Assembly (NCBI GenBank): GCA_001724265.1 | Contig: MEDY01000015.1 | Location: forward strand, 62,001-126,000 | Reading direction: 5' to 3' | Length of the DNA: 64,000 nt | DNA from: Rhizaria sp. SCN 62-66 | Lineage: Eukaryota | In this document: in pieces, positions 8,505-48,839 of the stretch | Layout of the letters: the number at the start of each line of letters is the position of its first letter | Position numbering within the stretch: position 1 is the stretch's first letter | Position numbers and translations under genes: made by a program | The notes under the pieces: model-generated | Told to the model about the DNA's origin: nothing | Database searches by the model: none | What the model saw: the letters and a program-made list of their open reading frames with translations, nothing else

Positions 8505-8847
8505 TGTAGTTCGAGGTCACTTAACGGACAGTTGACGACAATATCCCAACTTGAAGTTGACGCTCTTCGTCGACCAATATCGCCTGCCAATTTTTGCGAA
8601 CCAGCGGTTGGCCTGCCTGCGGTCGCGTTCTTTGCCCTCTGCGGCACCCTGACTGCGTAATCGGCGAAGTCATGTCGTGCCGTTTGACAACCTTACTTTA
8701 CGCTGCAGATACCGATGCAGAATAATTTACGTAGTAGTCTATACCATCACCTAATTATTTTACTTACAGCTCTATCCTTGCCTTGCTTCGCCGCGTCCCC
8801 TTTTTCCTCTCGCCCCACGGCCTCACATCCTGCAGTCGGTCAGTCCC

Positions 8848-11800
8848 ATGCCTCCTATCCGCGGCATCAACGGGTGGCTCAAGAGCTGCGGCCTGCTGCA
8901 CGAGGGCTCGCTCCGTTTTTTCGGTGGCAGCACTATGGGCATCGACGCAATTCGTTTTTTCACTGCCCTGCTGCTCAAGGACCCTTGGGCCGAGGCCATT
9001 GGCCACACGGACACCGCCGCCATCTCCGTCCTCGTTGCCGAGCAGCTCTCACTCTTTGCGGACGCTGACATCACCCCCGTGTTCGTCTTCCCTGGCGTCA
9101 CCTCCCTCCCGCGCCTCGCACCCGACACCAACGCCAACGCCCACGTCTGCGCTGGCTCCAGTGGCTCCTCCGCCGCGTCCACCGCCGCCGTCGCCGCTGC
9201 CCCCGCTGTCGCCGCCGCAACGGCCGCCGTCTCGGTCGACTCCTCGCTTTCCTGGGCGCTCACGGACCCGCACGCCGCATCCCGTGACAACGGCTGGGAG
9301 AGCGTACGTGGCGACGCCCTGACCACTGCCGAGGGCTACTTCGCCGAGATCACCCCTTCCCTCTCCGCCGCGGCCCGCGCCGCGCTCTTGGCGACTCTCC
9401 GTGCGCACGGTGCGCAGGTGCTCACGGCGCCGCACCGCGTCGCGGCGCAGCTGGCGTGGTTGGACCATGAGCCGCAGAAGGCGACGCATTCCTCGTACGG
9501 GCTGCACGAGCTGCTGCTGCACCGCGTTGCGACGGTCGTCACCGCCGTCGACCTCGCTCGGGGCACCGCGACGTGGGTCTCGCTCTCGCAACTGCTCGCG
9601 CACACCAAGCTCACTCACACGCAGTTCGTCCACGCGTGCTTGCTCGCCGGCCACGGTCCGTGCCGCACATTCCCCGCCGTGTATGACGAGCGCGGCCGGT
9701 TTAACTTTGCGCGTGCCATTACGCTCGTGCGCGCCGCGAAGGGCTCGCTCACTCAGGTATGTCTCAGGCCACAATAGGCCACGATATTGGTTGATTTTAC
9801 AATGGCAGTGATTTTTTTTAGTTGTATATCTACATGATTTATGTTATTCTGCATTCTTAGACTTATTTCTCCCTTTATCAACTCCTGACATACTCTGTTT
9901 TTCTGAAATTCTTCTTATATTAACCCACAGGTGTTCATCAACACTGCGCCCAAGCCCTCCGAGCACAACGCTCTGGCAGCGACCGTGAACGCGATGCTCG
10001 ACCGCATTGAGGGCGCGCGCGCCGCCGCCCCCGGCCAGACGATCGTCACTCTCCGCAAGCTCTGCACGGAGCGCGTGCCTCTGGTCGGCACTGGCAACGC
10101 CGCCACCAACGCCACCCTGCTCAAGGCCGCCGCCGCCGCCGCCGTGGCCGTGCACGCCGCCGGCGCCTCCGGCGCGCCCGTGGCGCCGGCCCCGCAGCCG
10201 CTGGGGACGCTGCCGCGGCCACTGCTTTCGCTGCTGCTCGCGGGCGCCGTCGCCCCCGCGACCGTGGCGGCTTGGGCGGGCGGTGCCGTGTGCGACGCGC
10301 CGCCCGCCGTGCCCTCGCGCACCTTGCCGTCGCTGCTGGACGATCTGGCCCCTCTGCGCGCGCAGGCCGTCGCGCTACTCTCGCTCGCCACCGCCGGCGC
10401 CGCCGCCACCACCAGCGCTGCCGCTGCTGCCTCCGCTAGTTCTTCCGAGTCCAGTGCTCCCGCGCTTGCGGCCGCGCTGGCTGCGAGCGTGATCATCGGC
10501 GACGCCGGCGACGACCACGCCGCTCTCGCCGCGGCTGCGCATGCCGCCAGCAAGTCCGTGCCCGGCTTCGCCACAGCGGCCGCCGTGCCGACGAACAGCC
10601 GCTGGTACGACGAGGCCGAGGGCCAGTGGCCACGGCCGCTCGCCGTGTCCAAGTACTCCCCTCTGGGCGCGCACCTCGCTCCGTCTGCGACGAACGCGGT
10701 GGCGGCCGAGTTTACCTCCGTCACGGCCGACAAGGCCGCTGAGACCGTGGCCGCCGCGGCTGCCCCCTTGCGCGCCGCCGTCGCCGCCGCGCTGCCCGCG
10801 CTGCTCGCGGCGCGCACCGAAGCCGGCGCCACCGAGTCTGACCCCGTGTCCGCCATCCAGGTGCTGAAGGTCATTACCAGCAGCTCCGATAACAAAACTG
10901 CGAGTGAAGCGGCCGCAAGCGAGGAGATTGACGTCGCCGCCGTGTCCGCGGCCGCTCTCGTCACCGCCGTCACGCTCTGGCTCGCCGGCTTCGTCTCCGT
11001 TTCTGCGGCCACCGGCGCCGTCACCGCCAGCCCCGCGGGCGCCGCGGTGCTCTCCGCCGCCGCCGCCGCGACGTCCGTCGGGTTCACGGCCACCGACGCC
11101 GACGGACTCCTGCAGGTGTTCTACGCGCTTAAGCACTCTGCGATTGACTCGCGCCCTGTGGTCATCTGGGCGTCAGAGCACAAGACCGACGAGTGGAACA
11201 CCATCACGGCCGACGCCGCTGAGCCCCGGTCGCATCGTGCACTGCTCCGCGCGCTTGCCGCGCTGCCCGCCGCGCCCGTGCTCGCGCGCGCCTCGGCCGC
11301 GTCGGTCTCCGCCTCCCCCGTCTCCCCCACCGCCGCTGCGGGCGGCGACGACGGCAACGGCGCTGCCGCCGCCGCCGCGGTGGCCACTTCCCCGCGTGCG
11401 CTGCCGGCCGCGGTCTCGGACTGCACGCTCGCTGCCACCGGCTGCGCCGCCAACGTCGCCGTCGCCGCTCTGCGCCAGGCGACCGAGCTCGTCACTGCCG
11501 CGCTCGCGGTTGCAGGCATTGTGACCCTCGCGCCCATTAGCAATAGCGCCGCCGCTGCGACCAGTGTGGCGGACCCCGTGTCGCTGGCACAGCTGCTGCC
11601 GTTCCGTCTTGACCTCCTCGCGCCTTCCTCCGCGTTCGCCGCCGCCCTCGCCGCCGCCGCTGCCGCTGGCTCCTCCACTCAGTCCAAGTCCAAGGGCTCT
11701 GTCGGCCTCGGCGGCGTCGCGCAGATCGAGCCCGTCGGCGCCGTCGTGCGCGCGCGCAGCGCTTGGGCTGGCGTGCTGGTCATGTCCGCCGCCATGCGCG

Positions 11801-11913
11801 CGGCCTGCATCGACTGCGGTCTCGGCGTCGAGGACGAGGTGACGGCTGATGTGGAGCCGCTGTTCGCCGCGGCCGAGAAGGCCGAGGCTGCTGCGGAGCA
11901 GAACGAGGACTGA
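8848..11913 (+). CDS. MKT1: MKT1-like post-transcriptional regulator (inactive XPG/PIN-like fold); exons 8848-9756, 9931-11913; ~963 aa
   Basis: N-terminus IRGINGWL...MGIDAIRF...DPWAEAIG, plus ITPVFVFPG, APHRVAAQLAWL and FVHACLLAG...TFP, match the MKT1/XPG_I_2 pattern with nuclease acidic residues replaced. Intron 9757-9930 (GTATGT...CAG) is phase 0. Stop TGA. Confidence 0.7.
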
Positions 11914-12710
11914 GCATGAAAGATCATGATCTAAACGGTATATTCATGTTCAGAACTGGCCTGATGCTGCACTGTATTGCTTCATGCGTGCCTTGGCGGG
12001 GCCTGGTGTTAATATTAGTCATGTTTGCTACATATTCATTTGACATCGTTGATATAGCGGAGTTAATATTAGTATTTTTCTTATCTTCCCAACAATAAAA
12101 CAAACAATATTATACGTGTCGCCTTTTTGTAGCTCGTCAGTGACCTTGTTTGTAGATGTAGAATCAAGTTGAGGTACTGTGTATTCTTGTTGTTGCTCTT
12201 TGGAAACGTGTAGCGGGCTAATAGATATGTTGTCAAAATCAATCAAATGTTGCATGAAGAATAAGATTGTTGTTACGTTACTGAAAATAGGTATTCAGAG
12301 CGGCCTTGTGCGAAAGCATTGCGTACACAAGTCTCAGAGGTGGGAAAGTTCTTCAGTTCACTGAAAGCACATGTTGAGGATGAAAGTCGCTTTGAGTTTG
12401 GCGGGATACTATGAAATAAATTGGATCACGGAGTGTCACAATAAAAAAAAAAGAGCATGTCAACAGTAAAGTTACACGCATGTGTCAGCACAAATGCGTT
12501 GATGGAAACTCAACATTTTGTTTAAGGTATGCACTGATAGAAAACGGAAAAACAAAACAAAAAGAAAACGACATACAAAAACACTAGAACGATACGATGA
12601 ACGTTCTCATTCTAAAAAAAGTTTTGCACGCATACACAGCTGTACTTGCACAAAACATGAACTAAATAAACAAATGTTAAGATGCAACTCAGTGAAGCAC
12701 AGATATGACT

Positions 12711-15700
12711 TTACATCCCACTGTCATCGTCTCTATCCTCACACGCGCTGAGTGTGTCGCCCAGCCCTCCCCCTGCGGCCACCGCGGCCACCGCCGCCGC
12801 CACCGCTGCGGCTGACAGCGGCGCCGCACCGTCGCAAACGACCACAGCGCCCCCGGCGGCGCACGCGGCGGCGGCGGCGTTGACTGCGGCGGCGGACGCG
12901 GTGATCGATGGCCGCCCCCACTGCGACATCGGCGTCACGCGCGCAAGCGGGGTGAAGCCCTCGGAGACGGCCCCATTTGCGGAGATATCAAGCCCGCCAA
13001 GAGTGAGGCTGAGGCCAGCGCCCTCGAAGAAGGAGTCGTCACCTCCATCATCGTCGTCGTTGCCCAAGCAGTGGCCAGAGCCCCTTTGCCCACGGCCGTG
13101 GGTGTCATAATCGCCACCCACAGTTACGGTGGCAGCGCCGCGGACGACGGCGCCGTTGAACGACGTCGTTGACTCTGATTTTACACTGGCGTCGCAAGCG
13201 TCCGTCGCGACAGCAGCAGTGACAGTGCCATTGTCGTTGTTGTTGTTGCTGTTATTCAGAGCAGCTCTCGGCATAGCACTGGAGATGTGGGCAAGCGACG
13301 TGTGATCGTGCGCGTTCGCTGCCGCAGCTGCAGCCATAAAGGCTGAGCTAGAACTTGTGTTAAGAGGATTGAAGACATCACCACCGTCGTTGTTGTCGGC
13401 ATCGTCAGCGTCAGCAAGAGCGCCAGTGGGAGGAGCCTGACTCTGCGACAACGGTTGCGACTGTGCCTATGACTGTGAGAGCGACTGGGAGAGCGACTGG
13501 GACTGAGTTGGAGACCCAAACTGGGATGGAAGCTGCTGCGACAGATTCTGTGACGGATATGAGACAGACAACTGCTGCTGGTGCTGGTGCTGCTGTTGCA
13601 TTTGTTGCTGCATGTGTTGCTGCTGCTGTTGCTGTTGCACCGCAAGCTGTTGCTGTTGCTGGTGAAGCTGATACTGCAGTTGCTGCTGATGCTGCTGCAT
13701 CTGCTGCGCTTGCGCCTGCGCCTGCGCTTGCGCCTGCGCTTGCGCCATCGCATGCATCTGTGCGCTCGTGTAGTATTGCTGTCCGTTCACAGACGACGTC
13801 GCCGCCGCAGCGGGCGCGGCGGCGACGGTCCTGCTGCCGCCGCCGGAGAGACGCTCCTGCGTCTGCGCCTGCCATAGCTGCAGCTCAGCGCGCTGCTGCG
13901 CCGCCATGCGTTGCATCGCGGCCGTCGCGGCGACTGTGGGCATCGATGCGGTGACCGCGGCCTGTGTCATCCCGGCGATGATCACACCGCTGCCGTTGCC
14001 GCTGCCGTTGCCGCTGCCGTTGCCGCTGCCGTTGCCGTTCATTCCGGCATTGGTGGCGTTGGCCCGCGAGAGCTCGACGTCCGCGTTCATCGCATGCGCG
14101 CCGTTAGACGCGTTCATCCCGAGAGATGACGAGTTGGCAGCATTCGCGCTGGCATAGGCAGCAGCATTCGCCGCAGCCGCCATGTCGCCCGGCAGCATGT
14201 GGTTGTGCGGGCCGCCAGCGGTGATCGACTGTGGCGGCTGCAAGCCGTGCTGCAGCAGCAAGTTGCGCGCGACCTGCGCCTCATTCTCCAGTGTGTTGAC
14301 ACGGGAACGCAGACGCTGGTTCAGTGCGTAGAACTGAGTGATGACTGAGATGGCGTTTTGCAGTACCATGACCTGCGTGCGCTGCGGCGGCAGAGGCACG
14401 TTCGCATTGCCCAGCGCTTCCGCAAGCGACTCGAAGAGCTGGTTGTTGTAGTCACGGCGTTCCTTTTCGCGCTGGTTACGCTTGCGGCGCATGGCGTCCT
14501 CGAGATCAGCGCTGCGAATGCTCGGCGGGAGGTGTCCCATCGCGTTCAAACCGACGCCGTTACCGTTGATGCCGTTGTGGCCCGACATGTTGGGCGTGCC
14601 CGGCGACGCGGCCATGTGCGGCGAGTACCCGGGAGACGACGCACCGGCTGACAGCACCAAGGTGCCTGGCCGCTTGCCCGCGACCGGCAGTGGCGGGATG
14701 CCCGGGGACCGGTGCGCAGTGGCCGTGGAGTTATACATACCGGGTGGCACCATGACAGGCTTGCCGTAGAGCGGCGCGGGGACGGGGGCCCAGCCACCCG
14801 CGCCGGTGCTGGGAAGCCCGGCCGCGGCGGGGTACGCACCCGCGTGGTGCTGCTGTGCGGCGTTGTGCGCAGGAGCCATGCGGAAAGAAGACGCGAGCTC
14901 GGGGCGGCGGAACATGTTGTCCTGGCTGCCTAAGGGGGTACGGTCGACTAAGTACCCGCCGGGGCCCGCGATCACAGTCGCGTCGTTGCTGTTGCCGTTG
15001 ACATTGTTACCATTGCTGTTGTTGTTGATGCCTCTGTTCGCTGCGTTGACGTTGGCCCCGTTGCTGTTGACCGTGGTCGCAGGGGACTGGGCCGCAGTCG
15101 TGGGCACTGAGCCGCTCGGGGTCGCGGGCACTGCGCCAGAACCAGCGGCAGCGCGGGCAGCGGCGGCAGCGGTGGGTGACTCCGCACCAGTAAACTCACC
15201 AGGCTCAGCGCCGTTGATATTAAGCATGTTCAACTTACCGTTTCCGTTGCCATTTGAGTGCGACGATAAGCCCATGGATGATGACGTAGCTGCGTTCGGC
15301 GATGGCTGGCCATCGTTCATGCCGATGACGCCGCCATTGCCACTACTCTGCTGCTGGAGCTGCTGCTGCTGCAACTGTTGCTGCTGCTGCTCCTGCGGAG
15401 AGTTAGAGGCAGGTGCTTGCGTAACGAGTAGGTGCATAGGCACGTAAAACACACGGCCGTCGGCCGCAGTCATCTGGACCAGACCACCGCTACCATTGCC
15501 ATTCACATCGCCGTTGTTGCTGTTATGGGTGTTGTTCTCCCCGAGCGCCATAGCAGGGACACTGCCGGGGCCGGAGCCCGCGCCCGCGGCTGGCGACGGG
15601 GCGACCGATGAGCTCATTATGACACCGGCACTGGCGGATTGTGACTGCGGAATCGGCGCCGGCCAGACGAACACGTTGCTGTTAGTACTGTTGTTGCCGT

Positions 15701-18392
15701 TGCTTGTGTCGGCTCTGGGCACGGTAGACAGCTGTGCGCCGCTGTTCACACTGGCACTGGCGCTCACTTGTGCGTGCGTGTGACTGAGAGCGGCCGTCGG
15801 GCTCGTCCCCTGCGACGCCGTGTTCCCGGGTCCGTTGTTCCCAGTGCCGTTCACAGTTGTGGTGTAGTGGAAGCCGTGCAAGTTGGGCGTGGCAGAACCC
15901 GACTGGTACTGCATCTGCATCTGTACCTGCTGCTGTTGCTGGCGCACCTGCTGCTGCTGCTGCTGGTACTGATGCTGCTGCGTTGTGTACTGCAGCGTGT
16001 AACCGCCGTACGAGGGCCCGCCGGTGTGGTGCGCAGAAGCAGGCCTGCGGGGGACGGTCGACACACCGTGCACGTGCTCGTAGTAACCGTTGCTCCCGCC
16101 GGCGGCGGCAGCGGCAGCAGCGGCGGCGGCGGCGGCGGCAGCGGTTTCAGCGTCCGGGTAGTAGCCACCGGTCTGCTGATACACCTGATAATGCTGCTGC
16201 TGTTGTTGCTGATGCTGATGTGGTTGCGCGTGTTGCTGGTGCTGCAGCTGCTGCGACGGCGATTTTGAGTAGGCCGAGTTGTTGTTATACTGCGGCGGAT
16301 TTAGCTGATGCAGCGGGTCCTGCTGCTGCTCAATTTGCGCCATCAACCGCTGGTGGTACAGCTGCTGCTGCTGCGATGGACCCATGCCCGCCCCACTGCC
16401 GCCTGCGGCAGCGTTCGGGTTCAGTCCAGGCGTGCTGCCGCCGCCGCCGCCTGCGCCATCGCCGGTCACCGCGGTGCCGGCCATGACGGCGCCGCCCCAC
16501 ACGCCGGAGCCCGTGGCGCCGGACGCCGCGGAGGCCGGGCGCGAGTCAATACTCATCGTGCGGCGGCGCTTTTCCGCGCCGTTGGCGCTCATGCCATCAT
16601 TGCCGTCAGCCGCGGCCGCGACGACGCCGGGGTCGACGCCCGAGGCCGTGAAGGACTGCGAGAGCGTTTGCGAGTCGTGGAACGAGCCACCGGACGCGCC
16701 GTAGGGCATAGAGGTACTGGCGGTGTGAGGACCGTGGCCGTGGCCGAGGGGTTGAGGGAGGGCACGTGTGAACACAGGCTGCGCGTAGCCCTGACTTGGG
16801 CTCGGGTAACTTGTGTTGCTCACAGTCGCCGCGCCCTGAGGATACGCATACCCGCCCTGCTGCTGTTGCTGCTGTTGCTGTTGTTGCATGTAACTGTGGG
16901 TCGAAGGCGGCGTGGGCGTCACTGAGGAGGCGCGGTAGCCTGTCGTGGCGGAGTGGGGCAATGGCATAGTTGCCATCTGTTGCTGCTGTTGCTGTTGATA
17001 CTGATAACTTTGTTGTTGCTGCAGCTGCTCTGCTGTGAAAGCTGCATTTGCGGGCTGTGGTGCAGCATACGAAGCATACGGTGAAGCATCGCCCATATTA
17101 TGGCTATTCCCGGGAGCATATGAATGTTGCTGCTGCTGTTGTTGCTGCTGCTGCGGCTGCGGGTGTACCGCACTGCCGTAGTGGCCGTTCGAGGCTCCAG
17201 AAGCGACGGACGTGCTTGACTGAGCCCGCGCCATCAGCAGCTGACCCACAGGCACCGCAGAGGACGGGGCCGGCGCCAGAGTGCTGCCGTGAGCGAGTAC
17301 ACCGTTAGCGACTGCGCCACCGTTTGCAGGCTGCGGGTACGCGTGTGACGACGCGGCCAAGTCGATATCAGACAAAGCGGGGTACATATACGTCCCGTTA
17401 GCGAGGTTTGATCCCGCTACTGCAGCTCCATTCGCGTTTATGTGAGAGCTCGAGCTGGAGCTGGAGCTCGTGTACGAGTGTAGAGCCGTCAGCACTGACG
17501 CGGCGCCGGCAGCAAGTGGAGCACCCGCCGCCGCCGCGGCCGTCGCCATGCCGCTGCTGCTATACGCAAGCGCGGTCCCTGGCGCGGGGACTGAGGCCGA
17601 GGCGGTGGGCGCGGCTGCTATGTGCATTGACACACCGACAGTGTAGCTGACGTCCACTGCTCCATTGGCGGGAACGACGCCGCTGTTGCTGTTGCTGGTG
17701 GCGGGCAGCTGCAGCGCAAGCAGGTCGCCCGGCGCGTAGCCGCGCTGCATGGCCGAGCCGGAGCGTTTGCGGTGCGACAGCGCCGGCGTGTCGGGCGCGG
17801 AGGGCGTGTGTAACCGCGAGCCGGCGAAGGGGGACGCGGCCGACGGGGACGGGAGCAGAGAGGACTGAGTCATGGCGCCGTTCAGAGGCTGGCCGGCGAC
17901 CGGCCCGGCAATGGCCGATGACGAGACACCGTTTGCACCTGTGATGTCACTGGCGTAGGCGGCTGAGCTAGGACCGGAGTAACTGCCAACGGCCGCGGCC
18001 GCGGCAGCAGCAGCGGAGGCGGCGGCGGTGGCAGCGGAGGCGTCAGCGCTTGTGTGAGGGTGCGTGCTCGCATTAGTGGCTGCGTACATGGTCGTATTGG
18101 CGTTCATCGAGTCAGGTGGGGTCTGCGAGAACGACATCGAGTGCGGCAGTGACAGCTGCTGCAACAGTGTCCCCTGCTGCAGCGCGGAGGCGGAGGCGAC
18201 GGGGCCAGAGACTACGGCGCCCGCAGCCGCGTTGGCTGCGGTCGGGGAGAGCACGACTGGCAACGGGTGGTCATCCGCGTCCGTGATCGCAGCCACGTGG
18301 TGTGTCGCAGAGCTAGAGCTCACAGTGACGGAGGACTGTGCGGGGCGCGAGCCGTCTTGCGAGGCGCTGCGGCGCCGCGGGACAGAGCTCAT
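12711..18392 (-). CDS. Giant polyQ-rich bHLH-ZIP transcription factor; 1641 aa to the TAG at 13469-13467, or 1893 aa if TAG is decoded (final TAA 12713-12711)
   Basis: bHLH-ZIP at ~14500-14255: MRRKRNQREKERRDYNNQLFESLAEAL...TQVMVLQNAISVITQFYALNQRLRSRVNTLENEAQVARNLL. The rest is Q/A/N/G/S low-complexity sequence. The same frame stays open for 251 codons after the TAG. Confidence 0.75.
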
Positions 18393-19390
18393 GAGCTCTA
18401 TTCACTGCGCAAACGAAGACGCGCGCAAGTGCCTGCAGTGAGCAACTACGGAGAAGAGCCACCCAGAGCGGGGAGTGCCGGACAGAGCGCTGACGCGTTT
18501 ATAGAGAGCAAACACTGATACCGGGTCTCGCTCCCCAAACACACAGACGTGAAGGAGTGCACTGTCGGGTGTACGGGCTTAACGCAGTGCAAGACTGGTC
18601 TAAGCTGTAGAGTCCGGGTGAAAGTTAGCAGAAAGCAATGCAACGATGCCAAGGGAAGGCTCGTGCGTGCCGTCTGCTGGGGTCTGTGCAGGGGCAAGTG
18701 ATGGCGGGAGTGGGGCAAGGAGCGGATAGCGAACGCAAAAATGGTCGTTATGAAGTATAATACAGAAGCTAGTGGGTTAATAATCCGCATTGTTTGTTAG
18801 AAAACATATGATATAGCAATGAGCCGGCGCTAGCAGAGCCGTATCATGCGTTTCTTTTGAACGTGAGATCAATAAAGAAAGTGGCGGGTGCCTGCCGTTG
18901 TTGTATGTGGTCACCCGAACTGAGGCTCGTGCAGTGAGCCAGGGAAATCATATAACGCAGTTACGACAACGCAGATGTAATGCACATGTCATGGAAAACA
19001 CTAGTTAAAGTGTGTGTGCGTCTCCCACGACAAGAAGCACTCGAAGTTAGTGTCTCTAATGTCGGCCACAAACCGAATTGTGCCGACGAAGTTTTTTCGG
19101 AACCCCGGCCGGCCGGCTATTACGATGATCGTCAGCAAGCAAGTCTTTGGGGGGATCTACGTCGATGGATTTCACATTATAATCACCACAGATGAAGGTT
19201 TCGTACAATTCACCGACGGTCGTTGTATGTTAATATGTATATCCGTTGGTGTTTGCTCTATAAGTTCCTTTTATTCTCATCTTATCGTTCACTTTGATAT
19301 CTCCGCAGCCCCAGCTTTACAAGCGCGCCCTTCGTTGACCCAGCTCGGCTTAACCACTTCAGCAAAGCATATTTTTTGCCAGTACGTGTC

Positions 19391-22300
19391 ATGAGCGCGT
19401 CTCGCACTCACGTTCATGGCTCTGGCCGCGGTCTCGCCCACCATATCCTTACTTTCGCGACGGCCGCGGTCACTCTCGCATCCGCCGCCTCTCCCCATCC
19501 AGCTGCAACAGCACCTCTGTCTACGACGCACAGTTCCAACGCCGCTGCATCTCATGTAGTTAGCCACGCCACTACTGCTTCGCACGCTGCCGTTTCCGCT
19601 GCGGCCCGCATCCCTCTTGCAGCCGCCGGCGACGATGATTTCGACGACTTCGACGTGTCCGCGCCCGGCAGGAGCAATCTGTGGTCCGTCGCTCCCTCCA
19701 GCACTGCCACCCGTGCAACCGTGACGACGCGCGGATTTTCCCTTGACGACATCGCCGGCGACGACAATAGCGCGGATGATGACGACGACACAGCTGCCGT
19801 TGAGCAGCCCGCTGAGGGCGAGAGCAAAATGATCTGGCGCGGCCGCGACGCCTTCACCAACACCAACGTCAACAAGCGTAAGCTGACTCTGAACGGCGGC
19901 GACGATGACGACGACGACGACGACGAAGACGATGATGGCGACGACGGCGATGATAGTGAGGCAGTAATCACCGCAAACCCGGCTGCCGCTGACTCTAACG
20001 ATGTCTCCGTTGAGTATAACGATGCCGATGCCGACAGTGATGGTGACCGGCCGACTCTGATGCGCCAGCCTGCGGTGCCGCCCGCGCTTTCGCGCGGCTG
20101 GGGCGCCCCCACAGTCATTGACACCGTCTCTAGCAGCCCTAACGATGATGACGGCGATGGCTTCTCCAACGACGGTCGCTTTGTTGCGGCCACAAATGAC
20201 GACGTGGACAACACAGTCGCTCTCGGCGGGACCCCCGACTTTGCCGACGACGACGCCGCCGCGACTGAGCCCACATTCACTTCCCTGTCACGCACTGACC
20301 GGATCCGAAGCCCCGACGCCGTGGCCGCCGCGGCCGACTCCGCGGCCCGGAGTGCGGTCGACTACAGCGACATCGCGGACCTGTGGGCAACGATCGCCAG
20401 CAGCGACAGCACAGACCGCAACAGCAACAGCAATAGTAACAGCAACAGTGACAGCAACACAAACGTGATCAGTAACGCCCATACTGTGACTGAGTCAAGT
20501 GTTTATGTGGACGCTAAGGAGAGCACTGATGTGGACTCTGACCGTGAGCTCACTCGCGAGCCTGAAGTTAAGCCGCCGGCTGTGATCGCTGAGTCTGATG
20601 ATGAAGTAACGCCTGCTGCTGAGGTTAAGCCCGCCGTGCTCACCGAAGTCAAGCCGCCGCCCTCTGGCGCTTTGGGTACTGATGACGACGACGTGGACGC
20701 GCTGGCTGCAGCGCTTGCCCGCGCCCACACAGACAACGCGGCGGATGCCGACGAGGCGTTTGATTTCGACAGCGTGACACCAGCAGCTCCGGTCATCACC
20801 ACCACACACACTGTGTCGACGGCGAATACTATTACTGACAAGGCTCTGGAGAACACTCATGTTCCCGGTGGTGATGGCGCAGGCAGTGCCCCCCAGTTCA
20901 CCGATGTCGCGTCCGTGCTGAGCGGGTACAGTGAGGCTGAGTTGCTGGCGCTTATCGGCGCCGCCGCCAAGGCTGACCACGACAACAACAACCAGAACAC
21001 TGTTCCCAATGTCCACGGTGACAAGAACTCTGCCAGTGCGTCTGCTATTGAGGCGTCCAGCGTTGAGACTTTGAGTAAGCATACTGAGACTGAGACTGAG
21101 ACGGAAGCTCAGACGAAGCCGGTGACTGTCTCCAATGACGTGTTTACTGACGCATTTCCGGCCACCCGTACTGCTGCAGACGTTGCCGACGTCACCACTC
21201 CAGCGACGAGTGACCGTGATCAGACCGAGAGCGTGCCCCCCAGTGACCGCGAGAATGACCGTGAGAGTGACCGTGAGTCGCTCTCCCAGGTGACCATCAG
21301 CCCCTCTGAGGTCGTCACCGGTCTGCGCGCTGCCGCGGCCGCTGAGGGTGCGCCGAGTCTGCGCATGCCGCCCGCAGAGGACGACATCATAGCTCATGCT
21401 AACGGTGTTTCTGACGCGAGCACGCCGAACACGGGCGCTCATGATGATGCTGAGACGAAGAAGGACACGAGCTCTGTTGCACACGCCCATGCTACCTCCG
21501 CTGGCGCTGCTACAGCTGGGTCCGAGTCTGATCTGAAGAGTGTCAAGGATGACAGAGCGGTTTTTTTGCCCCCCGGGCTCGGGCTCGACGGCCTCATCAC
21601 GGACATCGACACCCTCCTCGCCTCCCCCCACAACCCGTCCATCGACCCCGCTACTCTCGCCAACATCGACAAGAGCTCCGGCTCGACTGGGACTGGTCCT
21701 GCTGCTAATGACGGCGAGATCGAGTTCCTACCCGAGTCAGGCTCCTCTTCGAGCTCCGGCGCGGGCGCTGGCGCTGGCACTGGGACCAAGGGTAACGGTA
21801 AGGAGATGACTGTGGTCACCCCCGGTTTCGACTCTGTCGACACGGAAGGCCTCGTCGCCCCAGTCATCCTCGAGCCCGCTCCCGACGCGACGGCCGCAAC
21901 GACGGCCTCCGCCAGTGAGGACGCTGCTGCTGTTGCTGTTCTCGAGACCGGCGGTGCGACGGCGCCCGGCAGCGACCGTGACAGTGCCAACGCCGCTGGG
22001 GCGACGGACGCCGCTGGGGCCACGGCCACGGTCACGGTGGTCCGCGGCTTCGGCTCCACCCCGATCGACGATCTCACGGGGACGCGCGCCGCGCTCCAGG
22101 GCATCGATCCCGCCGCTGCCGCCGCCGCTGCCGCGGGCGCGGAGACCAAGTCCGTGGTGACGGTGGTGGCGAAGCTTCCGCCGCTGCCCGACGACATGGT
22201 CGTCGAGGGCGCAGTGCCTGCTGCCGCGGACAGCGGAACAGAGGGCACTGTGTTCAGCTCCGACAGCGCTGCCTACGCGGCCATGACCGGCTCGACCAGC

Positions 22301-25300
22301 CCTTCGCCGAGAGTGAACCCGTACGCTGAGATCGCCGACGCCGCCGCCAAGTCCAAGACCACCGCGGACGCCGGCGCTGGTGACGCTGACTCTGGCCGTC
22401 GTGGACCCGACTCTGCGGCCGTTAACGCGCCCCCTCATCATAGCAGTGACGGCGGCATTGTTGAGAGCAACGGTGGCAGTAATATTGACAGTGGGTCCAA
22501 GATGGAGTTCACTGAGGATCCCGTCGCAGTCACTGTGGGCGACACAGTTACTGCTCATGATGACAAGGAGTCAGAGACTGAGACTGCGCCTGACACCGTC
22601 TCTGAGCCTGCTGAGAAGCCCGACGACTCTAACGCTGACGCAGACACTAGCGCTGCCACTGCGACGGAGACTGCGACTGAGACTGAGACTGTCGGCGGGA
22701 CGGAAAGGACGCCGATTTCCTCTGAGGACATCTTGCCTGACCCTGTGACTGAGACGGATCCTACCCCGGAGCCCATCAACCCTCCGCAGCCGATGCCGGA
22801 TGTGACTGAGCCCCCGTCTGGCGTTAAGCCCGACCGATCCACCACGGAGACCGAGTCCGAGCCTCAGCCTGAACCTACGCCTGAGACTGAGACGGAGCCC
22901 GCTGTCCCCGAGTCCACGCCTGAGCCTGAGCCTGAGCCAGTCACTCCGACTCCGGAGCCTGAGCCCGCGTTCACTGGGCCTGAGCCTGTGCTTGAGCCAG
23001 TGGCCGAGCCTGAACCTGTTGTCGAGCCCATCACTCTCGCTCCCGTCAACCTCGGCGCCTCTGAGCCTGCTCCCGCGGTCCCCGAGCCGACCATGCCGAT
23101 CATCACACCGCCCCCCACTCCCACCACGCCCTCTGGCACCGGCACTACCACTGGCGCTGGCGCTGGCGCTGATGGGAATGGCAACACAGAGGTTGACCCC
23201 GCTACGGACACCGGCGTGGTCTCGACCGTCACCGCGACTCTGTCTAACTACACAGGGCCCAACGCGTCGCGCTTCCCGCTCATGCCGCTGCTGCTCGTCG
23301 CCGCGGCCGCCGCGCTGCTACTGCGGTTGTTGCGGTCACGCGGCGACAGTGACGGCGGCGGCGGCAGCGGCAGCGGCAACGGGTTCAGCTCGCTGTCGTC
23401 CGCTGACGGCGACGGCGACGGCGACGGTGACGGTGACAACGACCATGACGACACTGACATCGAGTCCCGCGGCTCGCTTGGCAACAACGGTAAGACTAAG
23501 AGTGGGTATGGCTACGTGGGCGCCACTGCTGCTGACGCGGACGACACTGACACCGGCCTCTCTCCCGTTGGCGCGCAATCTAAGGGTGCGTCGGCGTCTA
23601 AGGGTGGCGAGATCCAGCTCACAGTCATGAACTCGTCCTCTATCGCATCCCTCAAAACTCCTGCTAAGCCCGCGAATGCTGCCGCTGCTGCTGCTAACAG
23701 CGGTAACAACACCAACACACCGGGCTCTGCATCTGTCGCGCGCGCCGCAGCGCTCGGCCTCAAGCCCGTCTCCGCTGCCACCCGCGGCGCCGGTGCTAAT
23801 ATCAATGCCAGTGCTGCTGCAACCGCTGCGCCGCTGTTCTCGCTCGCTGCGCCTGTCGGCGACACAGTCTCGTTCCCCGGTCACACCGCCGCTGCGAAGC
23901 CCGCTGCCGCCGCCATGAACGCTGGCGGCGCGAATGCAGCGGCGGCAAACAGTGACGTGTGGGCATCGTGGGGCACTGCTGCGGCCGCCTCCGCGCCCGC
24001 CGCGGCGGCTGTTGCTGCACCGGCGTCGAATGCAACGGCCGCGAGTGGGTGGGACGACTGGGCGTCTGACTTGGCCGACGGCGACCCCGCTGAGACCCTC
24101 GGCAGTGGCACCGCGAACAACAACAGTGCGGCTGCTGCGGCTGCGTTGTTCTCGTTCCCTGCCCCGCCGAGCAGCAGCAACAACAACATTCATTTCGCTG
24201 CGACCAACATCGCAAACGGCAACCAGACTGCGAGCGCGCCGCTGAACATCTCGTTCCCGCTGCCAGCGCCCGCTGCGGCCGCCGCTGTGGGGTTTGATTT
24301 CCCGATCCTGACACCGTCGTCGTCCTCGCCGTCTGCTTCGTCACACGCTCCCGCTGCTCTTCGCAACGGCAACAACGCTGCGATTGCGGGCCATGTGTGG
24401 GGCGCTCCAAGCGCGAGTGCAAGTGCGGACCCGTGGGCTGTGTCCCCGCCTGCGCCCACGGCGACCACCGAGGCACACATGACCGCGGGTGCCGCGAATA
24501 CCAACGGTACCGGTGGTAGTACCAGTGCCTGGGGTGACTTCGACTTCGACATGAACATGAACAACAACACCGCCAACAGCAGCAACAGCGCGGCTCCAGT
24601 TGTCAGCAACACAGCTGTGCCGCAGCCGCATAAGCCCGAAGTGTCTGTGCCCGTCATCACCGCGACCGCGCCCTTTGCGGACGCGGAGGCCGACGCCGCG
24701 CTCGCAGCCGACTTCAGCTCCGCCTTTGCGTTCCCTTCCTCTCACGGCACCAATGTGGGCAGCGCGAACTCTGCGGTCGACGACGGCTTCGCTGCCGTCA
24801 CGACCGCGCCGGCTGCCGATCTCATGCCTGCGAACCAGATCAACAACGCCAGCAGCAGTCATGACCCCTTTGCGATGGCGTTCAACCCCTTCGACACGCA
24901 TGTCAGCTCATCGACTCCCGCCACTGCCGCGAATACCAAGCCCGCTCCTGCACCTGTAGCCATCCCGGCCCCCAAGACGGTCCCCGCTCCTGTCGCAGTC
25001 GCTGCTGCGGCGCCCGTGGCCCTCAGCACCAGCGCCAGCGGCAGCAGCCCTGACAGCACCGACACGGGCGCTCACAGCCCCGTTCCTGCCGCTGGTCTCT
25101 CCGTCTCCGCTGCGGATTTTGCTGCGCAACAGGCGGTGAACAACAACGGAGCGCCTCGCACGATGAGCAGCGCCAGCGTCGTTGGCTCTGGCAGTGGCTT
25201 CAGTCATTTCACGCCGGTCAGCTCTACGCACTCACCGTTTCCCGCCGAAAACCACTCGAGCAACAACGCTGCCGCCGGCGCCGGCGCCGCCACCGCGTTC

Positions 25301-26477: not shown

Positions 26478-27879
26478 TCACTCATTCACAGCAACAGACT
26501 CATTGTGCGTGTGCGCAGCGGCCGCGGACTCGACCCTCACGGCCACCGCGGCCGCCACGGCCAGCGCGTTGGACAGCGCGAACCAGCCGATCGTCTCGGT
26601 CACCAGCGTCGCGACAAAGCCGGCGAAGGGGACGAGGACCAGGAACGTCTCAGCGCCGGCACAGACACCACAACTCACACCGTTGCTGCCGCCGCTGCTG
26701 CAGATGCCGCTCGTCTCATCCTTCGCGGCGGCACTAGAAGCGGTGGTGGAGGCGGGAGCAGGGGCGTGAGCAGAGGGGCGGGAGTCGCTGTCACTGCGGC
26801 CGCGGGCGCCGCGCCTGCCGCGGCCGCTCGCGCCAGAAACAGCCGCTGCATTAGCAGAGTCAGAAGAGTGGCTGCTCGCGCTAGAGCGGATCGAGGCCTT
26901 GAGGAGGCTGTTAGCGCTCCAGACCGAGGCGGCGACGAGCGAGGCCATGACTACGACGGGGGCGACGACGGCCAGAGAGTGTACCCTGCCCGCGGCGGCG
27001 CCGATGAGGAAGCAGGCACCCGCGCCGATCGTGGTCACGGCCGCCGTGGTGACCAGGGAGCGGAAGAGGCGGGCGCGCTCGCGGACGCCCGCGGCCGTCA
27101 GTGCGGCCGACGTGGGCTGCGGCGGGGACTGGGGCGCAGCGGTGGCTGCAGTCAGAGTCGAGGAAAGGTCCTTGAGCTCGGCGGCGGCCGAGGCGTTGTT
27201 GCTGATGCCGGCGGGCGCAGAGATGGTAGGGGGAGCAACCGTGAGCACGAGCGCGGTGGCCTCGGAAGACTCGGGCTCGTCGACCGCAGTGACTACGGTT
27301 TCAGCAGAGGAGTCACTTAAAGCGATGGAGATCTTGGAGGGCTGGGAGTCGAGCAGCAGCACAATCGAGATCAGGCCAGCTGCAACAATAAGGCTGAAAT
27401 GTAACGCAACAAAACATGGTTGAAGTGTAAGTTAGGTAAGCTTTGATGGTCAGAAAGTGCGTGATATCTTCAGTAAAGTGAGAGGTGGGGGAGACATCAT
27501 GTGATGTGGGGAAGGAACGTACACGCCAACTTGCTCGAACGAAAAGCCCGGCGCAACAAGGTTAAACACGGTGAGCGCGCTGGCAATGCCGCCAACTGCG
27601 GCGACGCGCGCGACGGGAGCCTGGGCAGCGAGTGCTGCGAGAGGGGCCCACTCGAAGCGCGTAGGGGTCTTGGGACGACTGAAAAAGGTCGACAGCATAT
27701 CAAGCACACTAAAGGCTGAAAAAAAGAGAGATATAGGGAATAAACAAGGTAAAGGATTACGTGAATAATTTTACATAATATAGCGAAACGACATGCATAT
27801 CGAAGGGCGGGACACGATAGTATTTCATGTTTTGTAAAGTGAGAAGGAGAGTCTCACTTGACCGGATGAGAGGAGGCAT
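26478..27879 (-). CDS. Uncharacterised multi-pass membrane protein; exons 27879-27858, 27715-27523, 27393-26478; ~376 aa
   Basis: Frame-consistent introns (GTGAGA...TTCAG; GTACGT...TTCAG). Several hydrophobic helices (VAAVGGIASALTVFNLV, VLIVAAGLISIVLLL, AAVTTIGAGACFLIGAAA, LAVVAPVVVMASLVAASVW, FLVLVPFAGFVATLV). Stop TGA. Confidence 0.65.
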
Positions 27880-28221
27880 ATCAACAGCTGCAAAGCAGTG
27901 TTAGTGTCCCCGAATGAAGCCTCAAATTTAATAAAATACACAACAAGTTCAATATATCACGCTGATCATTATATATGTACTCTTTACGGCCTCTGTCAAG
28001 TACTGTGCTGAGTATTGCAAAGTCATTCGCGTCATCGTCACGTGTCTCCTTTTGGCCCTTACGCGAATGCGTTTGTGGTTGTAGGGAGAGTACAGCGGAT
28101 ATGAAGTTAAAAAGTTAACTTCTCCTGACGTACGTTTTGCTTCAGATAGTTCACTGGTAGCTCTAGTTAAATAATTGGGTATAACCGAAACATAGCGCAC
28201 ATCTGCACGGTATTTAGACCT

Positions 28222-30109: not shown

Positions 30110-30422
30110 GTTATTTACGGTTAGCAGGAATTTATGCAGCGTGACGATGGGGATACATCATATCAACACGAGATTTATCGTACACCCAAAGCTCGTCGCC
30201 CGACGAGCCCCGTCAAATCTACGTTTGTGGCCAAACTTCCCTGGCGACGTTTTCTCGGAATTTCACTCTTGGATGGAGTGCTCTTATTTTAATATAATCA
30301 TTATCTGATGATTTAATGTATTCTACTTTTGTTATGCGACGATGTGACGATAAATACCCCACGAACCACCATCATCTCTACATGCCACATGCTTGCCCTG
30401 CTGATTGCCTCAGAGCCCCGCG

Positions 30423-31991: not shown

Positions 31992-32397
31992 AGAGATCAA
32001 CGCTTCCCTTACCAAGATGGCGAGTATTTATTGAATGATGATTTGTGCGTTATTTATGCTAGAGAATAAAGAATGGAAATTCAAGTTATTGAAAATAAGC
32101 TACGTGTCGTAATTTTAATGTATTTTTCGGGATAATTGAAAGATAAGACAAACAAAGAGAAGCAAGCTAACCACACATGATAAACACGATACGAACTAAT
32201 GTAACACTCATGATGAATGAGGAGCAGCTTCGCACAAGAAACATTTTTCAGCACACATACGTACAAAATAAAAGAAATACACAATAGAGTACATAGACCT
32301 CGATGAATACTGATATCTCAAGGTACTTAGATCATTTGACTAGTTTTTTCGTTTACCAACATCACACCACCTAGTTGGAGGTACTTAGGCGCGAATA

Positions 32398-34474
32398 TTA
32401 GAGGTACTTAGACGCCGTCCTCCACTGGCACTTGTCTTTTCCGAGTACAAAAAGTTGGTACGCGAGCGGAATGAGCAGAATGCCTTGCATCCAGAACAAG
32501 AACAGTGTCGGACTCTTCATTTGCTCCACGAGATCCGTGAGCAAGTAGTTTGTCTCTGCGTCGCCGCAACCTGCGGACACGGCGCCGTCGATGGACAGCC
32601 AGTAGTGCCGCACGAGCAGCTGCATGCCCGACGTCACGCCCAGCGCAACAGCGACGGCGATGAGGTACGAGGCAAAGAAGTTGGCGCACCCGCGCGACTC
32701 CGTCTCGTGGTCGCGAACATTAGCGCGGCGGCGGTAGAAAAACCGGATAAACGCGGCGGTCGCCAACAGGAACGAGAGCTGGAAGCCCGCGACGGCAAGC
32801 ACGGCGGCGAACCCGCGACGCTGGGCGCGGTGGCCGATAGCGAGCACCTCAGATCGCGAGTACGCGCACGTGCGGTCCCACGGCGGCTCGCGCAGCGCCA
32901 TGATCGCCGCGGCGTCCTCCTCCAGGTCGGGTGCGGACCCCGTCTTGGTGAAGCCGTTGTCGCGCAGCCAGAGGATGAGGTCCGTGGTGGGCATCGTGGC
33001 GGCGGGAAAGTACCGCGTGTCAACAATGCGGCCAGACGGGTGTAGCGGAGAGCCGCAGTCGCGGTCGATCTTGTCCCCAGTTGCCTGCGCAGGGAGATGA
33101 AAAAACAATGGGTATAGATTGTACATAATTATGTTAGTGCCGTGCGACAATATTTTACTCAAACATGAATAAATATTATTTATAGTTGATTACTTAAAAT
33201 TAAACAGTTGTGAGCGTGTTAATGTGATCTTATTTACGATTTAATGATAAAACAATGGCCCGTACCTGGTTGCGGCAGACGAGCGGAGGCTGCCCGACGG
33301 CGAACATAGTGTGCGCCAGCGGCGAGGGTCCGTCGCGGCGCGGAATGAGCATCCAGCGCGAGCCGTGCCAGTCCCACTCCAGCACTGTCGGCTCCGCGTC
33401 CCCGGGCACCTCCTGGATGGTGAAGGATGTGATCGGGCACTTGAAGTCGGGTAACGCGGCGTCCTCGACGGGGTAGCAAGAATCCTGCCCGCAAAGCACC
33501 TCGCCGACGCGGCACTGCATCTTTCCGGGGCCGGGAAACGCGCGGGCACGCGTGGCCGCGGGCTCCAGCGGGGAAAGCTTGGCGCAGAAGACGACGCCCA
33601 TGAAGACAGCGACAGGCCAGCTCGTCTTGATCGGATGGATCACCGCGTCGCCCGCGCCCGCTCCTGCACCGGCACCCAGGTTCACGTCCAGACCGGCGTC
33701 GCTCATGGAGTTCGCGTTGACGTTGGCATTGACGCTGACGGAGGGGAGGAACTGGAATGACAGTTCTTGCTCCGACGACAGCCAGTAGGGAAAGTCCTCG
33801 GGACAGATGAATGATGCGGCGGGATGGTTTGACGCAGAGGGTGCACCGGCGCCGGAGCCAGAGCCGAGAGACGAGGGAAGCAAAGAGGAAAACCAGGAGT
33901 TGTGTTGCTGCTGCTGGCGCGCGGCGTGGTCGTCCGTGTGCTGTTTGAGGAGCTGCAGCTGCGCGGGAGTGGGGACGATGGGGCGGACCTCCAGGATGGG
34001 GGCGCGAGACCAAGCGATGTCCAGGTCGGTGAAGGCGGTGGCGCGGAAAGGCCAGATAATAACCACTATGGTGGCAAGAATAAACGCAATCAGGGGCGGG
34101 ATCAACTGTTGTGGGCGAACGGGGCGGCGCGAGTGCAAATGCAAGAAAACAACAAGTTGTAGAAAACGGACGTAAGCAAGGGTCGCGAATCGAGATTTCA
34201 GGGGACTTGAAGGCGGTAAAAATAAACGGTTGAAGCAAACCCAAAAGGATGGCAAGTGAGTTGATTGGGAACGTACGGGGATAAAGGTCTTGCATCGCTC
34301 AAACCTTGTGAAGTTCTCAGGGGAGTCCATCTTCCAGTCCGTCCAACAGGTCCGCAGACACGAAGGCACCTTGGTCTGCCGGGCCTTGGGCATCAGCAGG
34401 GGGTTATCCAGCTCAATGTGATCCGCGGGGATGCCATCATAGGCGTAGATAATGAATTTCTTCGCGCCAGACAT
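32398..34474 (-). CDS. Uncharacterised membrane protein with Cys-containing extracellular region; exons 34474-34277, 34105-33266, 33084-32398; ~574 aa
   Basis: Two phase-0 introns (GTACGT...CAG; GTACGG...CAG). One N-terminal TM (LIPPLIAFILATIVVIIW), a Cys-rich region (CPEDF, FCAK, CRVGEVLCGQDSC, CPITS, C..DRDC) and three C-terminal TM segments. Stop TAA. Confidence 0.7.
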
Positions 34475-39153: not shown

Positions 39154-39184
<31 letters not shown>

Positions 39185-41603: not shown

Positions 41604-41634
<31 letters not shown>

Positions 41635-46019: not shown

Positions 46020-48162
46020 TCAGAACATGTCAGCAAGCCACATCGCCTCGGGCACGTAGTCGACGCGCACAATCTTCTGCGCAAATTGGCGGCCATGCAT
46101 CCACTTGGCCGTCTCAGCCGCTCCCTCAACACTGGTGAAGGCGATGTAGATAACATCCCCGCGCGCCTTGATGGTCTCCACGCGGCCCCACTTCTCTGCC
46201 TCCTCGCGCGTCTCGGCCATGATGTCGTCGTACTCGGCCTCCAGCTCCTCCACGGTCACCATGTTGCGCAGAGACAGGATCCGCGACGTGGGAGGGCCCA
46301 GCGGCGCCAAACCCCCGGGACCCGTGGCACCAGGCATCGCACCACTACCACCACCAGCAGCAGCAGCAGCAGCGTCAGGGGCACCGGGGAAGGGGAAACC
46401 CCCGCCGGGCGTTGGCATCATCATGCCGGGCATCCCCGGTCCAGGCATCATACCCGGCATGCCACCACCAACGCCGCCAAACGGGGCGTTATAGCCGCCC
46501 ATAGGGGCGGCGTTGGCGGGCGGCGGCAGCGGCGCGGGCGGCTGGCCGGCGACCGAGCACGTCACGCGGCGGCCCCCGACCTCGAACCCGTGGAGGACAG
46601 TGAGCGCGCGCGGCGTGAGTGACTCATCTTGGTAGCAGAAAAAGGCGAAACGGCGCTGTCCGTCTGGGGACGTGACGACCTTAAAGCCTGACAAGGCACC
46701 GATGGACTCGAGAACGCGCTGTACGTCCGCCTCGGAGAGGTCGTGGGGGATGTTGCCCAGGTAGAGCTTGTTCGGGCCGTTAGGCACGTGCGTCGTGATG
46801 CCGCCGGGACCCATGGGGGCGTTGGCGTTGTTGTTGTTCGAGTTGTTGCTGCCGCCCGCATTGCCGCCCAGGTTGGCGACGGAGGACGTCGTGGGCATGC
46901 CGCCGCAGCGCGTGAAGTCCGTCCGCGGCGGGTTCGCGCGGTACCACTCCGTCGTCTCCTTCGCGGGCTTCACGCGCAGCGTGAGCGTGCGACCGCCGCG
47001 CAGCTCGGCGACGACGCCGTCCAGTGCAAACGCGCGCTCGGCGTCGTCGCGCTCGGCCAGCTCGACAAACGCGAAGGTGCCCATGTGCTTGACCGCGGTG
47101 ACGGCGGGGCGGGAGGACGGCGGGCGGTCGTCGAAGGTCGGGAGAAGCTGGTTGAGGGCATCCTCGATGTCGCTCGCGGGGAGCTCCTGTTGTTGAGAAA
47201 GCAACAAACAGAAAACAACGGATATTGCACAAGATAGATGAGATACATACGATGATGTCAATATGAAGTATAAAATGTGAATACATACAAACACATCAAA
47301 AGATATTCAAATGTGATACATTTCTGCGAAGATATCGACATACGTTCGAGACGTTACCGACGTAGACACGACGGAAGTTAATCCCGCCTGGTCGGTTGGG
47401 GTTGCCCCCGTAGCTGCTGCTGTGGCCGCCCTGTCCCTGTCCGTGGCTCTGGCCGTAGGACGACTGCTCGCCAGAGTAACCGCCGAAGCCGCCAAACTGG
47501 CCCTGGCCCTGCTGCTGCAGCGGCTGCTGTTGCTGCTGTTGACCGACGGGGAGGCCCTGGTTCGCTAGCAGCTGCTGCAGCGCGGTGTCAGCGCTGCCGC
47601 CGCCCATAAGCGCGTTAAGGTCAATCCCGGCGTCGTCCGCGCCGTACCCGCCCGCGCCGGCGCTGCTGCCGCCACGGCCACCGCCGCGGGGGCCGTCGGC
47701 GTTGCTGACGCCGCCGCCGAAGGAGGTGGAGCCGATGCTCTGGAGGAAATACTCCTGCTGCCGGATCAGGTCCTCGGTCGTCGGCAGCACATCCCACAGC
47801 GTCGGCTGCGGAACGCCCGGCGGGCGCTTGCTGTCGTCGTAGCCGAAGTCGCGGCGCTTGGCCGTGGGCTCGACGTTGCCGACAACACCTTCGCGGTGTG
47901 CTGCGCTGCTACCGCCGCCGCCACCGCCGCCGTGGCCGCCGCCGTGACCGCCAGGGCCGCGACGGCGCCGGTTACCGCCGCCACCGCCGCTACCACCGTG
48001 GTGATCGTGCTGGTCGCGGAAGCCGCCGTGGCGATTGGGCTCGCGCTCGGCGGGGCGGGAGACGGCAGAGGAGTCGCCGCCCTCGAGGTGGTGCAGCCCC
48101 AGGGAGGACATGCGCTCCGGGTTGATGTAGGAGCGGAAGGAGGAGGATCCTTCGCTCGACAT
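46020..48162 (-). CDS. U2AF2: Splicing factor U2AF large subunit (U2AF65-like: ULM, RRM1, RRM2, UHM); exons 48162-47344, 47186-46020; ~661 aa
   Basis: TLWDVLP (U2AF35-binding Trp), RRVYVGNV...FAFVEL...AFALDG, PNKLYLGNIP...FAFFCYQD, and ILSLRNMVTVEELEAEYDDIMAETREEAEKWG...MHGRQFA. Intron GTATGT...CAG. Stop TGA. Confidence 0.85.
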
Positions 48163-48839
48163 CGGATCTAGTTCGTGTAACAGGCACGCAACAATTAAAT
48201 GCAAATGATAACAGAGATTGGGTGAGGGGGGCAAAGAGCGATTGCGAAAGAGGGGCATGGGTTTAACTGGGTCAGAGGGCCGAAAAGGTCTGGGATCTCG
48301 GTGGGTTCCCGAAGGATTGAAAGACTTTAAAATAAGGGATAAAGCGAGGCCGGCATAAAATTGCGGTTGAGAAGACGGTGTGTTGCTCTGTCGGAAACTA
48401 GATAGAGAGCCAGCTTTGAAAACTGAGCTGGGAATCAATCCGTTGTTCATCGCGCAGTCGCGCCAGTCGAGGGCCGAAAAAAAAACTCGATGGTTTGGAG
48501 TGAGACGTATCTGAACCGACCCAATATAGCGCACATCTCACTCTCTTCAGCGTCACTTGCAGTTTAATTAAGGCAACTGTGAGACTGTTTGCGCGTTTAT
48601 TGTGCAATTAAGTTTTCATACCCAGCAGTCGGATCTCGACCCTCGGATTTCTTCGAGATGAAAGCAGTCGACGATGCCTCCACACGCGAGCTCACTCTTT
48701 CCTCTCCCCCACTTTGTATCGGTCTTAACCACAGCTCTAGCACTCAAGCACCACGCCGCACGTTTGAAAGTTGTCTACCCTCGTAGCACCTACAGTGACA
48801 ACTTCCCTTGCGCAGGGTAACAGCTTCCCCCAGCACACA

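Follow-up and report, generated by a model that had tools for sequence, protein, structure and literature searches.

The genetic context of an in-frame TAG codon was examined in a stretch of 64,000 nucleotides from Rhizaria sp. SCN 62-66 (contig MEDY01000015.1; positions 62,001 to 126,000), here called the window, in which positions are counted from the first letter. The TAG closes a long minus-strand open reading frame (ORF) encoding a protein with a bHLH-like domain, and the same frame stays open for 251 further codons, here called the tail, before a TAA is reached. In an original prediction, made from the letters of the window, this TAG had been picked out as a candidate for reassignment of UAG or for programmed readthrough. 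The features of the locus are as follows.

13467..18401, minus strand: upstream ORF from stop to stop (1644 aa)
13470..18392, minus strand: upstream ORF from its first ATG at 18392 (1641 codons)
14337..14489, minus strand: bHLH-like domain (aa 1305-1355 of the stop-to-stop ORF)
13471..13502, minus strand: 12-nt tandem repeat encoding SQSL units (TRF: 2.7 copies, 95% matches)
13467..13469, minus strand: in-frame TAG in the context TCA TAG GCA CAG
12714..13466, minus strand: open continuation in the same frame (251 codons), with acidic, Ala-rich and Asn-rich stretches
12711..13466, minus strand: the same-frame ORF with its terminator included (251 aa, ending in TAA)
12711..12713, minus strand: TAA, likely the original terminator, at the end of the GC-rich block
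12012..12710, minus strand: AT-rich 3' flank (3' UTR or intergenic; GC 0.36), shared with a convergent XPG-like gene

The product of the upstream ORF is of low complexity and rich in Q, A, N and S. It includes a match to the HLH family of Pfam (PF00010; E = 7.6e-4, 19.7 bits) that lies under the cut-off of 20.7, and when the HLH stretch was searched against PDB sequences, five of the eight matches listed, including the best three, were to bHLH proteins (INO4, E2-alpha, CLOCK, a Max/E2-alpha chimera and MyoD; E values 0.12-0.74), the remaining three being to outer-membrane protein H. As the Pfam match is below threshold and the PDB matches are weak, the domain is referred to as bHLH-like. A stop at the TAG would remove the last 13% of the protein and leave this domain whole.

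Around the TAG the codons of the minus strand are TCC CAG TCG CTC TCC CAG TCG CTC TCA CAG TCA TAG GCA CAG TCG CAA CCG TTG TCG CAG AGT CAG, and both the letters quoted in the original prediction and the position of the TAG (13469-13467) were read back exactly. An S/Q/L repeat on both sides of the TAG had also been proposed, and this was borne out: the SQSL tandem repeat detected by TRF directly adjoins the TAG, and degenerate units (AQSQ, PLSQ) are found beyond it. In neighbouring repeat units, the position matching the TAG is occupied by Q or L. With the repeat reaching the TAG on one side and its degenerate units continuing on the other, the two ORFs were formerly one coding sequence.

Coding character of the tail

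A codon model was trained on 14 other ORFs of the window. In frame, the tail scored 0.517 bits/codon, compared with 0.520 for the upstream ORF, whereas the two other sense frames of the tail scored -0.53 and -1.13 bits/codon. In sliding windows of 40 codons, the readthrough frame was the best one through to the TAA, and its score became negative only past that codon. When the tail was shuffled, the frame was kept open in 21 of 20,000 trials, and the remaining five frames of the tail carry 3 to 13 stops; the openness of the frame thus exceeds chance. The GC-rich block extends over 12722-15210 and the adjoining AT-rich segment over 12012-12721 (GC 0.36), the switch in composition falling at the TAA and not at the TAG. 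The predicted continuation of 251 codons in the same frame to a TAA at 12713-12711 was thereby confirmed, as were its exon-like composition, with an in-frame codon score equal to that of the upstream ORF, and the beginning of AT-rich sequence only at the TAA.

The TAG was then compared with the 16 other confident terminators of the window, the gene's own TAA included. The GC content of the next 200 nt is 0.58 after the TAG but 0.33-0.49 after the others, and the 200 nt beyond the TAA of the tail (GC 0.33) resemble those beyond other terminators. The next in-frame stop is reached after 251 codons, as against 1-32 codons for the other confident terminators and up to 90 codons in three tentative genes. 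The coding score of the next 60 codons in frame is +0.32 after the TAG, compared with -0.19 to -1.11 after the others. The TAG is thus an outlier among the terminators of the window, and the tail almost certainly is, or very recently was, the C-terminus of this protein. Tryptic peptides from the translation of the tail include SESTTSFNGAVVR and GAATVTVGGDYDTHGR.

No Pfam family was found in the tail. A HMMER search of the tail against 1.84 billion representatives returned two matches, one being the tail's own ORF call and the other a low-complexity, bacterial-type repeat protein with 31% identity (E = 5.7e-6). A word-based search with residues 1560-1893, in which the TAG was translated as Q, found nothing among proteins of 1041-3313 aa within the 8000 best word-sharing candidates, which may have been saturated by polyQ words. 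A cluster look-up of the tail recovered only two ORF calls, both of the same sequence: P0036, of 208 aa, starts from an internal ATG, and P0038, of 246 aa, starts from a TTG. The latter length equals that measured from the TTG which, according to the original prediction, underlies the M given in the ORF track. The public calls assign the locus to a 278,007-base contig. The collection lacks an exact match for the 1641-aa product of the upstream ORF counted from its first ATG, and the gene is thus wrongly split in public data.

The TAG codon in other sequencing runs

Contigs matching the stretch were found in metagenomes from bioreactors, wastewater and activated sludge (9 rows from 6 studies), and contigs of four other runs were compared with the window over 12000-18600. 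A contig of run X3 (DNA, from another study) covers 13264-14016 with the TAG present and 0 differences. In run X4, which represents a variant strain, a contig covering 13225-13627 has one difference, which is not listed at the TAG and must therefore lie near a contig end. In run X7, a polyA metatranscriptome, a contig is collinear with 13308-13565 over the TAG, with 0 differences and no gap, and a second contig lies within the tail (12726-12907). The first of these extends well over 31 letters either side of the TAG at a depth of about 2, and as the RNA library may contain DNA, the RNA evidence is moderate. Besides the window, the TAG is thus present in every other run with contigs over the site, three in all (X3, X4 and X7, from other studies and years), although contigs hide minor alleles, partial editing and heterozygosity. 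When the site was searched with any codon in place of the TAG, 0 matches were found in JGI metagenome contigs and 0 in GTDB genome contigs.

The strains differ by about 10 substitutions in 6.6 kb. For run X4, 10 substitutions are listed, together with a deletion of 1 nt at 12443, within the AT-rich 3' flank; some of these substitutions are also seen in the RNA run X7, which belongs to the same study. Of the strain polymorphisms, a single one falls in the tail and is synonymous, while upstream there are five synonymous and four non-synonymous changes, numbers too small to judge constraint. Gaps in the coverage of the gene by runs X5 and X7 carry no weight, and apparent joints at CAG/GCN repeats, which are of low complexity, have short sides and come mostly from other organisms, were likewise discarded.

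A sequencing or assembly error in the window could be considered because the TAG is a single site adjoining a short tandem repeat. However, the same letters were read in independently assembled contigs from three other runs of other studies, so the base-call error that had been allowed for in the original prediction is, like an assembly error, extremely improbable.

Alternatively, the TAG could be spliced out, or the tail could be a separate downstream gene. The letters ...TCATAG before G look like the intron acceptors of the window (for example ...GATAG before G), and the tail is called as an ORF of its own in public data (P0036, P0038). However, those calls stem from prokaryote-style gene calling. 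All seven introns read in the window use the donor GTAYG, which is absent within 930 nt 5' of the TAG, the only loose match there (GTGTG) being 518 nt away; the lack of a nearby consensus donor had been foreseen correctly. Introns here are AT-rich, whereas GC is about 0.6 around the TAG, and the RNA contig is collinear over 13308-13565, which speaks against a transcript spliced before the TAG. Between the two ORFs there is neither an AT-rich spacer nor a promoter-like gap, and the repeat motif spans the TAG. Splicing or a separate gene is thus very unlikely.

Editing of the stop in mRNA (e.g. A-to-I, converting UAG to UGG) could restore the full frame in some conditions. It would account for the intact tail, and editing of UAG stops is described in Fusarium (PMC13123824). 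However, the sole RNA-library contig over the site reads TAG, albeit at a depth of about 2 and in a form of data that drops minor forms, and nothing connects this organism with the fungi known for such editing. Editing is hence considered only a slight prospect, and even taken together, editing, splicing, a separate gene and error are quite improbable. The TAG is genuine, and is unlikely to be either an assembly error or constitutively spliced out.

TAG usage and gene content of the window

All six frames of the window were scanned for stops flanked on both sides by coding-like open sequence, and antisense shadows of annotated genes were removed using the six-frame score and the annotation. 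On the sense strand, the TAG described here was the sole in-frame stop of this kind, among about 14,900 codons of 16 genes, and no in-frame TAG was found in the conserved IFT122, VPS11, phosphoacetylglucosamine mutase or SDR genes. The codons of the window include 610 CAG and 140 CAA (750 together), and 151 of the 610 CAG codons are in the bHLH-like ORF; the tally is approximate for the RRM gene and orf32398, in which rough exon trimming threw the second exon out of frame (TGA counts of 6 and 2). Four further candidates were rejected. The TAG-ended ORFs at 47569..48171 and 32389..33045 on the plus strand are antisense shadows of minus-strand genes, and the TAGs at 9775-9777 and 56429-56431, each closing a long ORF, lie inside AT-rich GT..AG introns.

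The 15 other confidently ended genes terminate in TGA (nine) or TAA (six) and never in TAG, and three tentative genes add two TAA and one TGA, hence none of 18 ends in TAG. The nine TGA and eight TAA counted in the original prediction are close to these figures (10 and 8 with the tentative genes), and the absence of TAG stood. If TAG made up 20% of stops, the chance of finding none would be 0.8^15 = 0.035, or 0.8^18 = 0.018, and at 10% of stops the chance for 0 of 15 would be about 0.21. The terminators sampled are few and were looked at post hoc; the missing TAG terminators are mildly surprising and suggestive only. An increase in TAG use with GC3 has been described across 50 eukaryote genomes (PMC9348620).

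One way to account for these counts is a lineage-wide change, in which UAG would have ceased to terminate efficiently and would be unassigned, ambiguous or a newly captured rare sense codon (Gln or Leu likeliest), shunned at gene ends and tolerated within frames. This is the only reading that links the absence of TAG from 15 (or 18) terminators with an in-frame TAG in an intact coding sequence. Codes with UAG as a sense codon and UAA or UGA as stops exist (PMC5304391), and as there is no close sequenced relative, an unknown code could have escaped notice. However, there is one TAG in about 14,900 codons as against 750 CAG and CAA codons, and none in conserved genes, whereas in the two codes described with UAG as sense and UAA as stop, 384 in-frame UAG codons were counted in 71 genes and 204 in 126 genes, or 1.6 to 5.4 per gene; UAG encodes Leu in the rhizarian exLh and Gln in Iotanema spirale (PMC5304391). 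Further points against a lineage-wide change are the size and post hoc nature of the terminator sample and the lack of any tRNA gene in the 64-kb window; nor was eRF1, for which PMC5304391 gives the N-domain motifs GTS, NIKS and YxCxxxF, detected in Pfam scans of the window.

As dozens of TAGs would be expected in the window, a reassignment of the known type is unsupported. What is left is either a UAG that is rarely used or leaky, at this site or throughout the lineage, or a young nonsense allele, and of these a lineage-wide change is rather unlikely. In its most specific form, the organism would be at an early or intermediate stage in the loss of the UAG terminator, purged from gene ends and with a first in-frame UAG tolerated or decoded, and this too is a doubtful prospect. 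If a lineage-wide change were true, it would represent a stage of reassignment in which UAG is gone from terminators and almost absent from coding sequence; an early or intermediate loss would show the reassignment of a stop codon still under way rather than completed. Theory foresees such stages, by way of an ambiguous intermediate or codon capture, and they are hardly ever caught. We know of no described UAG reassignment in which the codon is hardly used in frame.

Exons in the window are rich in GC (GC3 0.7-0.87), whereas introns and intergenic DNA are rich in AT (GC 0.27-0.46), and the switch between the two is very sharp, as at 9757-9931, 56261-56452, 54858-55014 and 33096-33259. Introns are of the GT..AG type, and terminators lie within a few bases of a switch from GC-rich to AT-rich sequence. 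Recognisable genes include IFT122 (three exons), VPS11 and phosphoacetylglucosamine mutase, together with genes for La-domain, RRM and PDZ proteins, a methyltransferase and an SDR. The organism, an uncultured eukaryote, is without a close relative on record: the best non-self match of IFT122 is 50% identical, and the mutase shares 57% identity with one NCBI protein and <=46% with all else, plants, Capsaspora and Thecamonas being at a similar distance. As intraflagellar transport genes are present, the organism probably builds a cilium.

A two-exon gene at 8755-11913 on the plus strand, with only a weak match to the XPG N-terminal family (E = 6.4e-4), is convergent with the bHLH-like gene, and the stops of the two genes (11913 for the XPG-like gene) are about 800 nt apart over one AT-rich spacer. 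Two more giant single-exon ORFs without a Pfam domain were found at 19298-25657 (plus strand; 2119 aa) and 38940-44732 (minus strand; 1930 aa), the latter being as Q-rich as the bHLH-like gene (174 CAG, 61 CAA). At 27490-30237 (minus strand) and 61457-63059, many short GC-rich blocks lie between AT-rich ones; these are probably multi-exon genes, one of them with weak methyltransferase matches, and their stop codons were left out of the terminator count.

Interpretation of the TAG codon

Tentatively, we favour a young nonsense substitution that truncates the protein in one step, a change from CAG (Gln) to TAG being the simplest. The original coding sequence would have comprised the bHLH-like domain, the Q-rich region, the SQSL repeat and the acidic, Ala-rich tail, ending at the TAA at 12713-12711, and a single CAG to TAG change would have interrupted it between the SQSL repeat and the tail. 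Among the populations sampled, the TAG allele would be the major or only one. If the standard code applies, the main product would end at the TAG, keeping the DNA-binding domain and losing the last 251 residues, and the tail would be a remnant that has had too little time to decay, translated by background readthrough at most. Here, we infer how old the mutation is, which way it went and that translation stops at the TAG.

Several observations agree with a young truncation. The site is a lone one, with no second in-frame stop lying between coding sequences, and as a target for CAG to TAG change the gene ranks among the top two in the window. The matching position of neighbouring repeat units holds Q or L, the TAG has neither a known leaky context nor a stable RNA structure downstream, and a stop there would cost only the last 13% of a low-complexity protein and spare the bHLH-like domain. 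Tolerated nonsense variants tend to lie in such C-terminal low-complexity regions. As the sampled strains are so little diverged, an undecayed tail of 251 codons would, by our own estimate, be expected even without selection. If true, a young truncation would be ordinary variation in a fast-evolving low-complexity gene, and its main lesson would concern annotation, as the public ORF calls already cut the gene in two.

Several findings weigh against it. The tail has no sign of decay, its codon score being equal to that of the upstream ORF, and run X4 covers 558 of the 753 nt of the tail without an indel, the sole substitution there (AAT to AAC) being synonymous. No sense-codon allele was seen, all three covering runs having TAG, though this point is a weak one in that contigs hide minor alleles. 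In addition, the other genes of the window never end in TAG, which a plain nonsense mutation leaves unexplained, and GC3 is high in the window (0.7-0.87), a range in which TAG terminators would be commoner going by the trend described in PMC9348620.

Site-specific programmed readthrough under the standard code would instead make the UAG leaky at this one position, giving a short bHLH protein and an isoform extended by the acidic tail. The locus has the anatomy of readthrough, namely a stop, a long in-frame extension with a coding signature and a second stop at the change in composition. The TAG is retained in each of the four data sets, the variant strain included, and the RNA-library contig carries it unspliced and unedited. 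Readthrough that alters the activity of transcription factors has been described (PMC8417969, PMC3840789). However, searches of the tail recovered no homologue, and no stable RNA structure was predicted downstream: a segment of 136 nt beginning shortly before the TAG gave z = +0.83, with 161 of 200 shuffles folding as well. In addition, UAG-GCA-CAG is not known as a leaky context, the types described being UGA-C/CUAG and UAG-CAR-YYA. The +4 base at the 16 other confident terminators is A in eight, G in five and T in three, and the G following the TAG is thus unremarkable. The coding signature of programmed readthrough is therefore present at this site, while a known leaky context or structure is not, and programmed readthrough is rated rather unlikely, on a par with a lineage-wide change. 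If true, a transcription-factor-like protein would be made in two isoforms by readthrough in an organism that is neither an animal, a fungus nor a plant.

Whichever reading applies, the residue at the TAG is likeliest to be Gln, with Leu, from the SQSL period, second. Gln is placed first because CAG is the commonest one-step neighbour and because of the pattern in which UAG is misread, mostly as Gln, Tyr or Lys.

In comparison with known systems, the edited genes of filamentous ascomycetes, as they are described, likewise have a UAG that breaks an otherwise intact ORF, but the RNA contig here is unedited and the organism has no sign of belonging to that group. The codes described for exLh and Iotanema resemble the situation in the window in that TAG is missing from the sampled terminators, TAA and TGA serve as stops and the TAG is at a Gln/Leu repeat position; they differ in the frequency of in-frame TAG, which here is lower by one to two orders of magnitude (0.06 per gene, compared with 1.6 and 5.4), with none in conserved genes. 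Readthrough of the Drosophila type, as reported for the POU factor Drifter among others, similarly involves a stop and a long coding-like extension in a transcription-factor-like gene, whereas here UAG is followed by G and has neither a known leaky context nor a known structure. Natural premature-termination alleles, with which a young nonsense substitution would belong, are unlike the present case in that no sense allele was seen in the four data sets and the window is without TAG terminators. They are like it in having a single in-frame stop that is one step from the abundant CAG, an intact downstream frame and a stop placed within the last 13% of a long repetitive protein.

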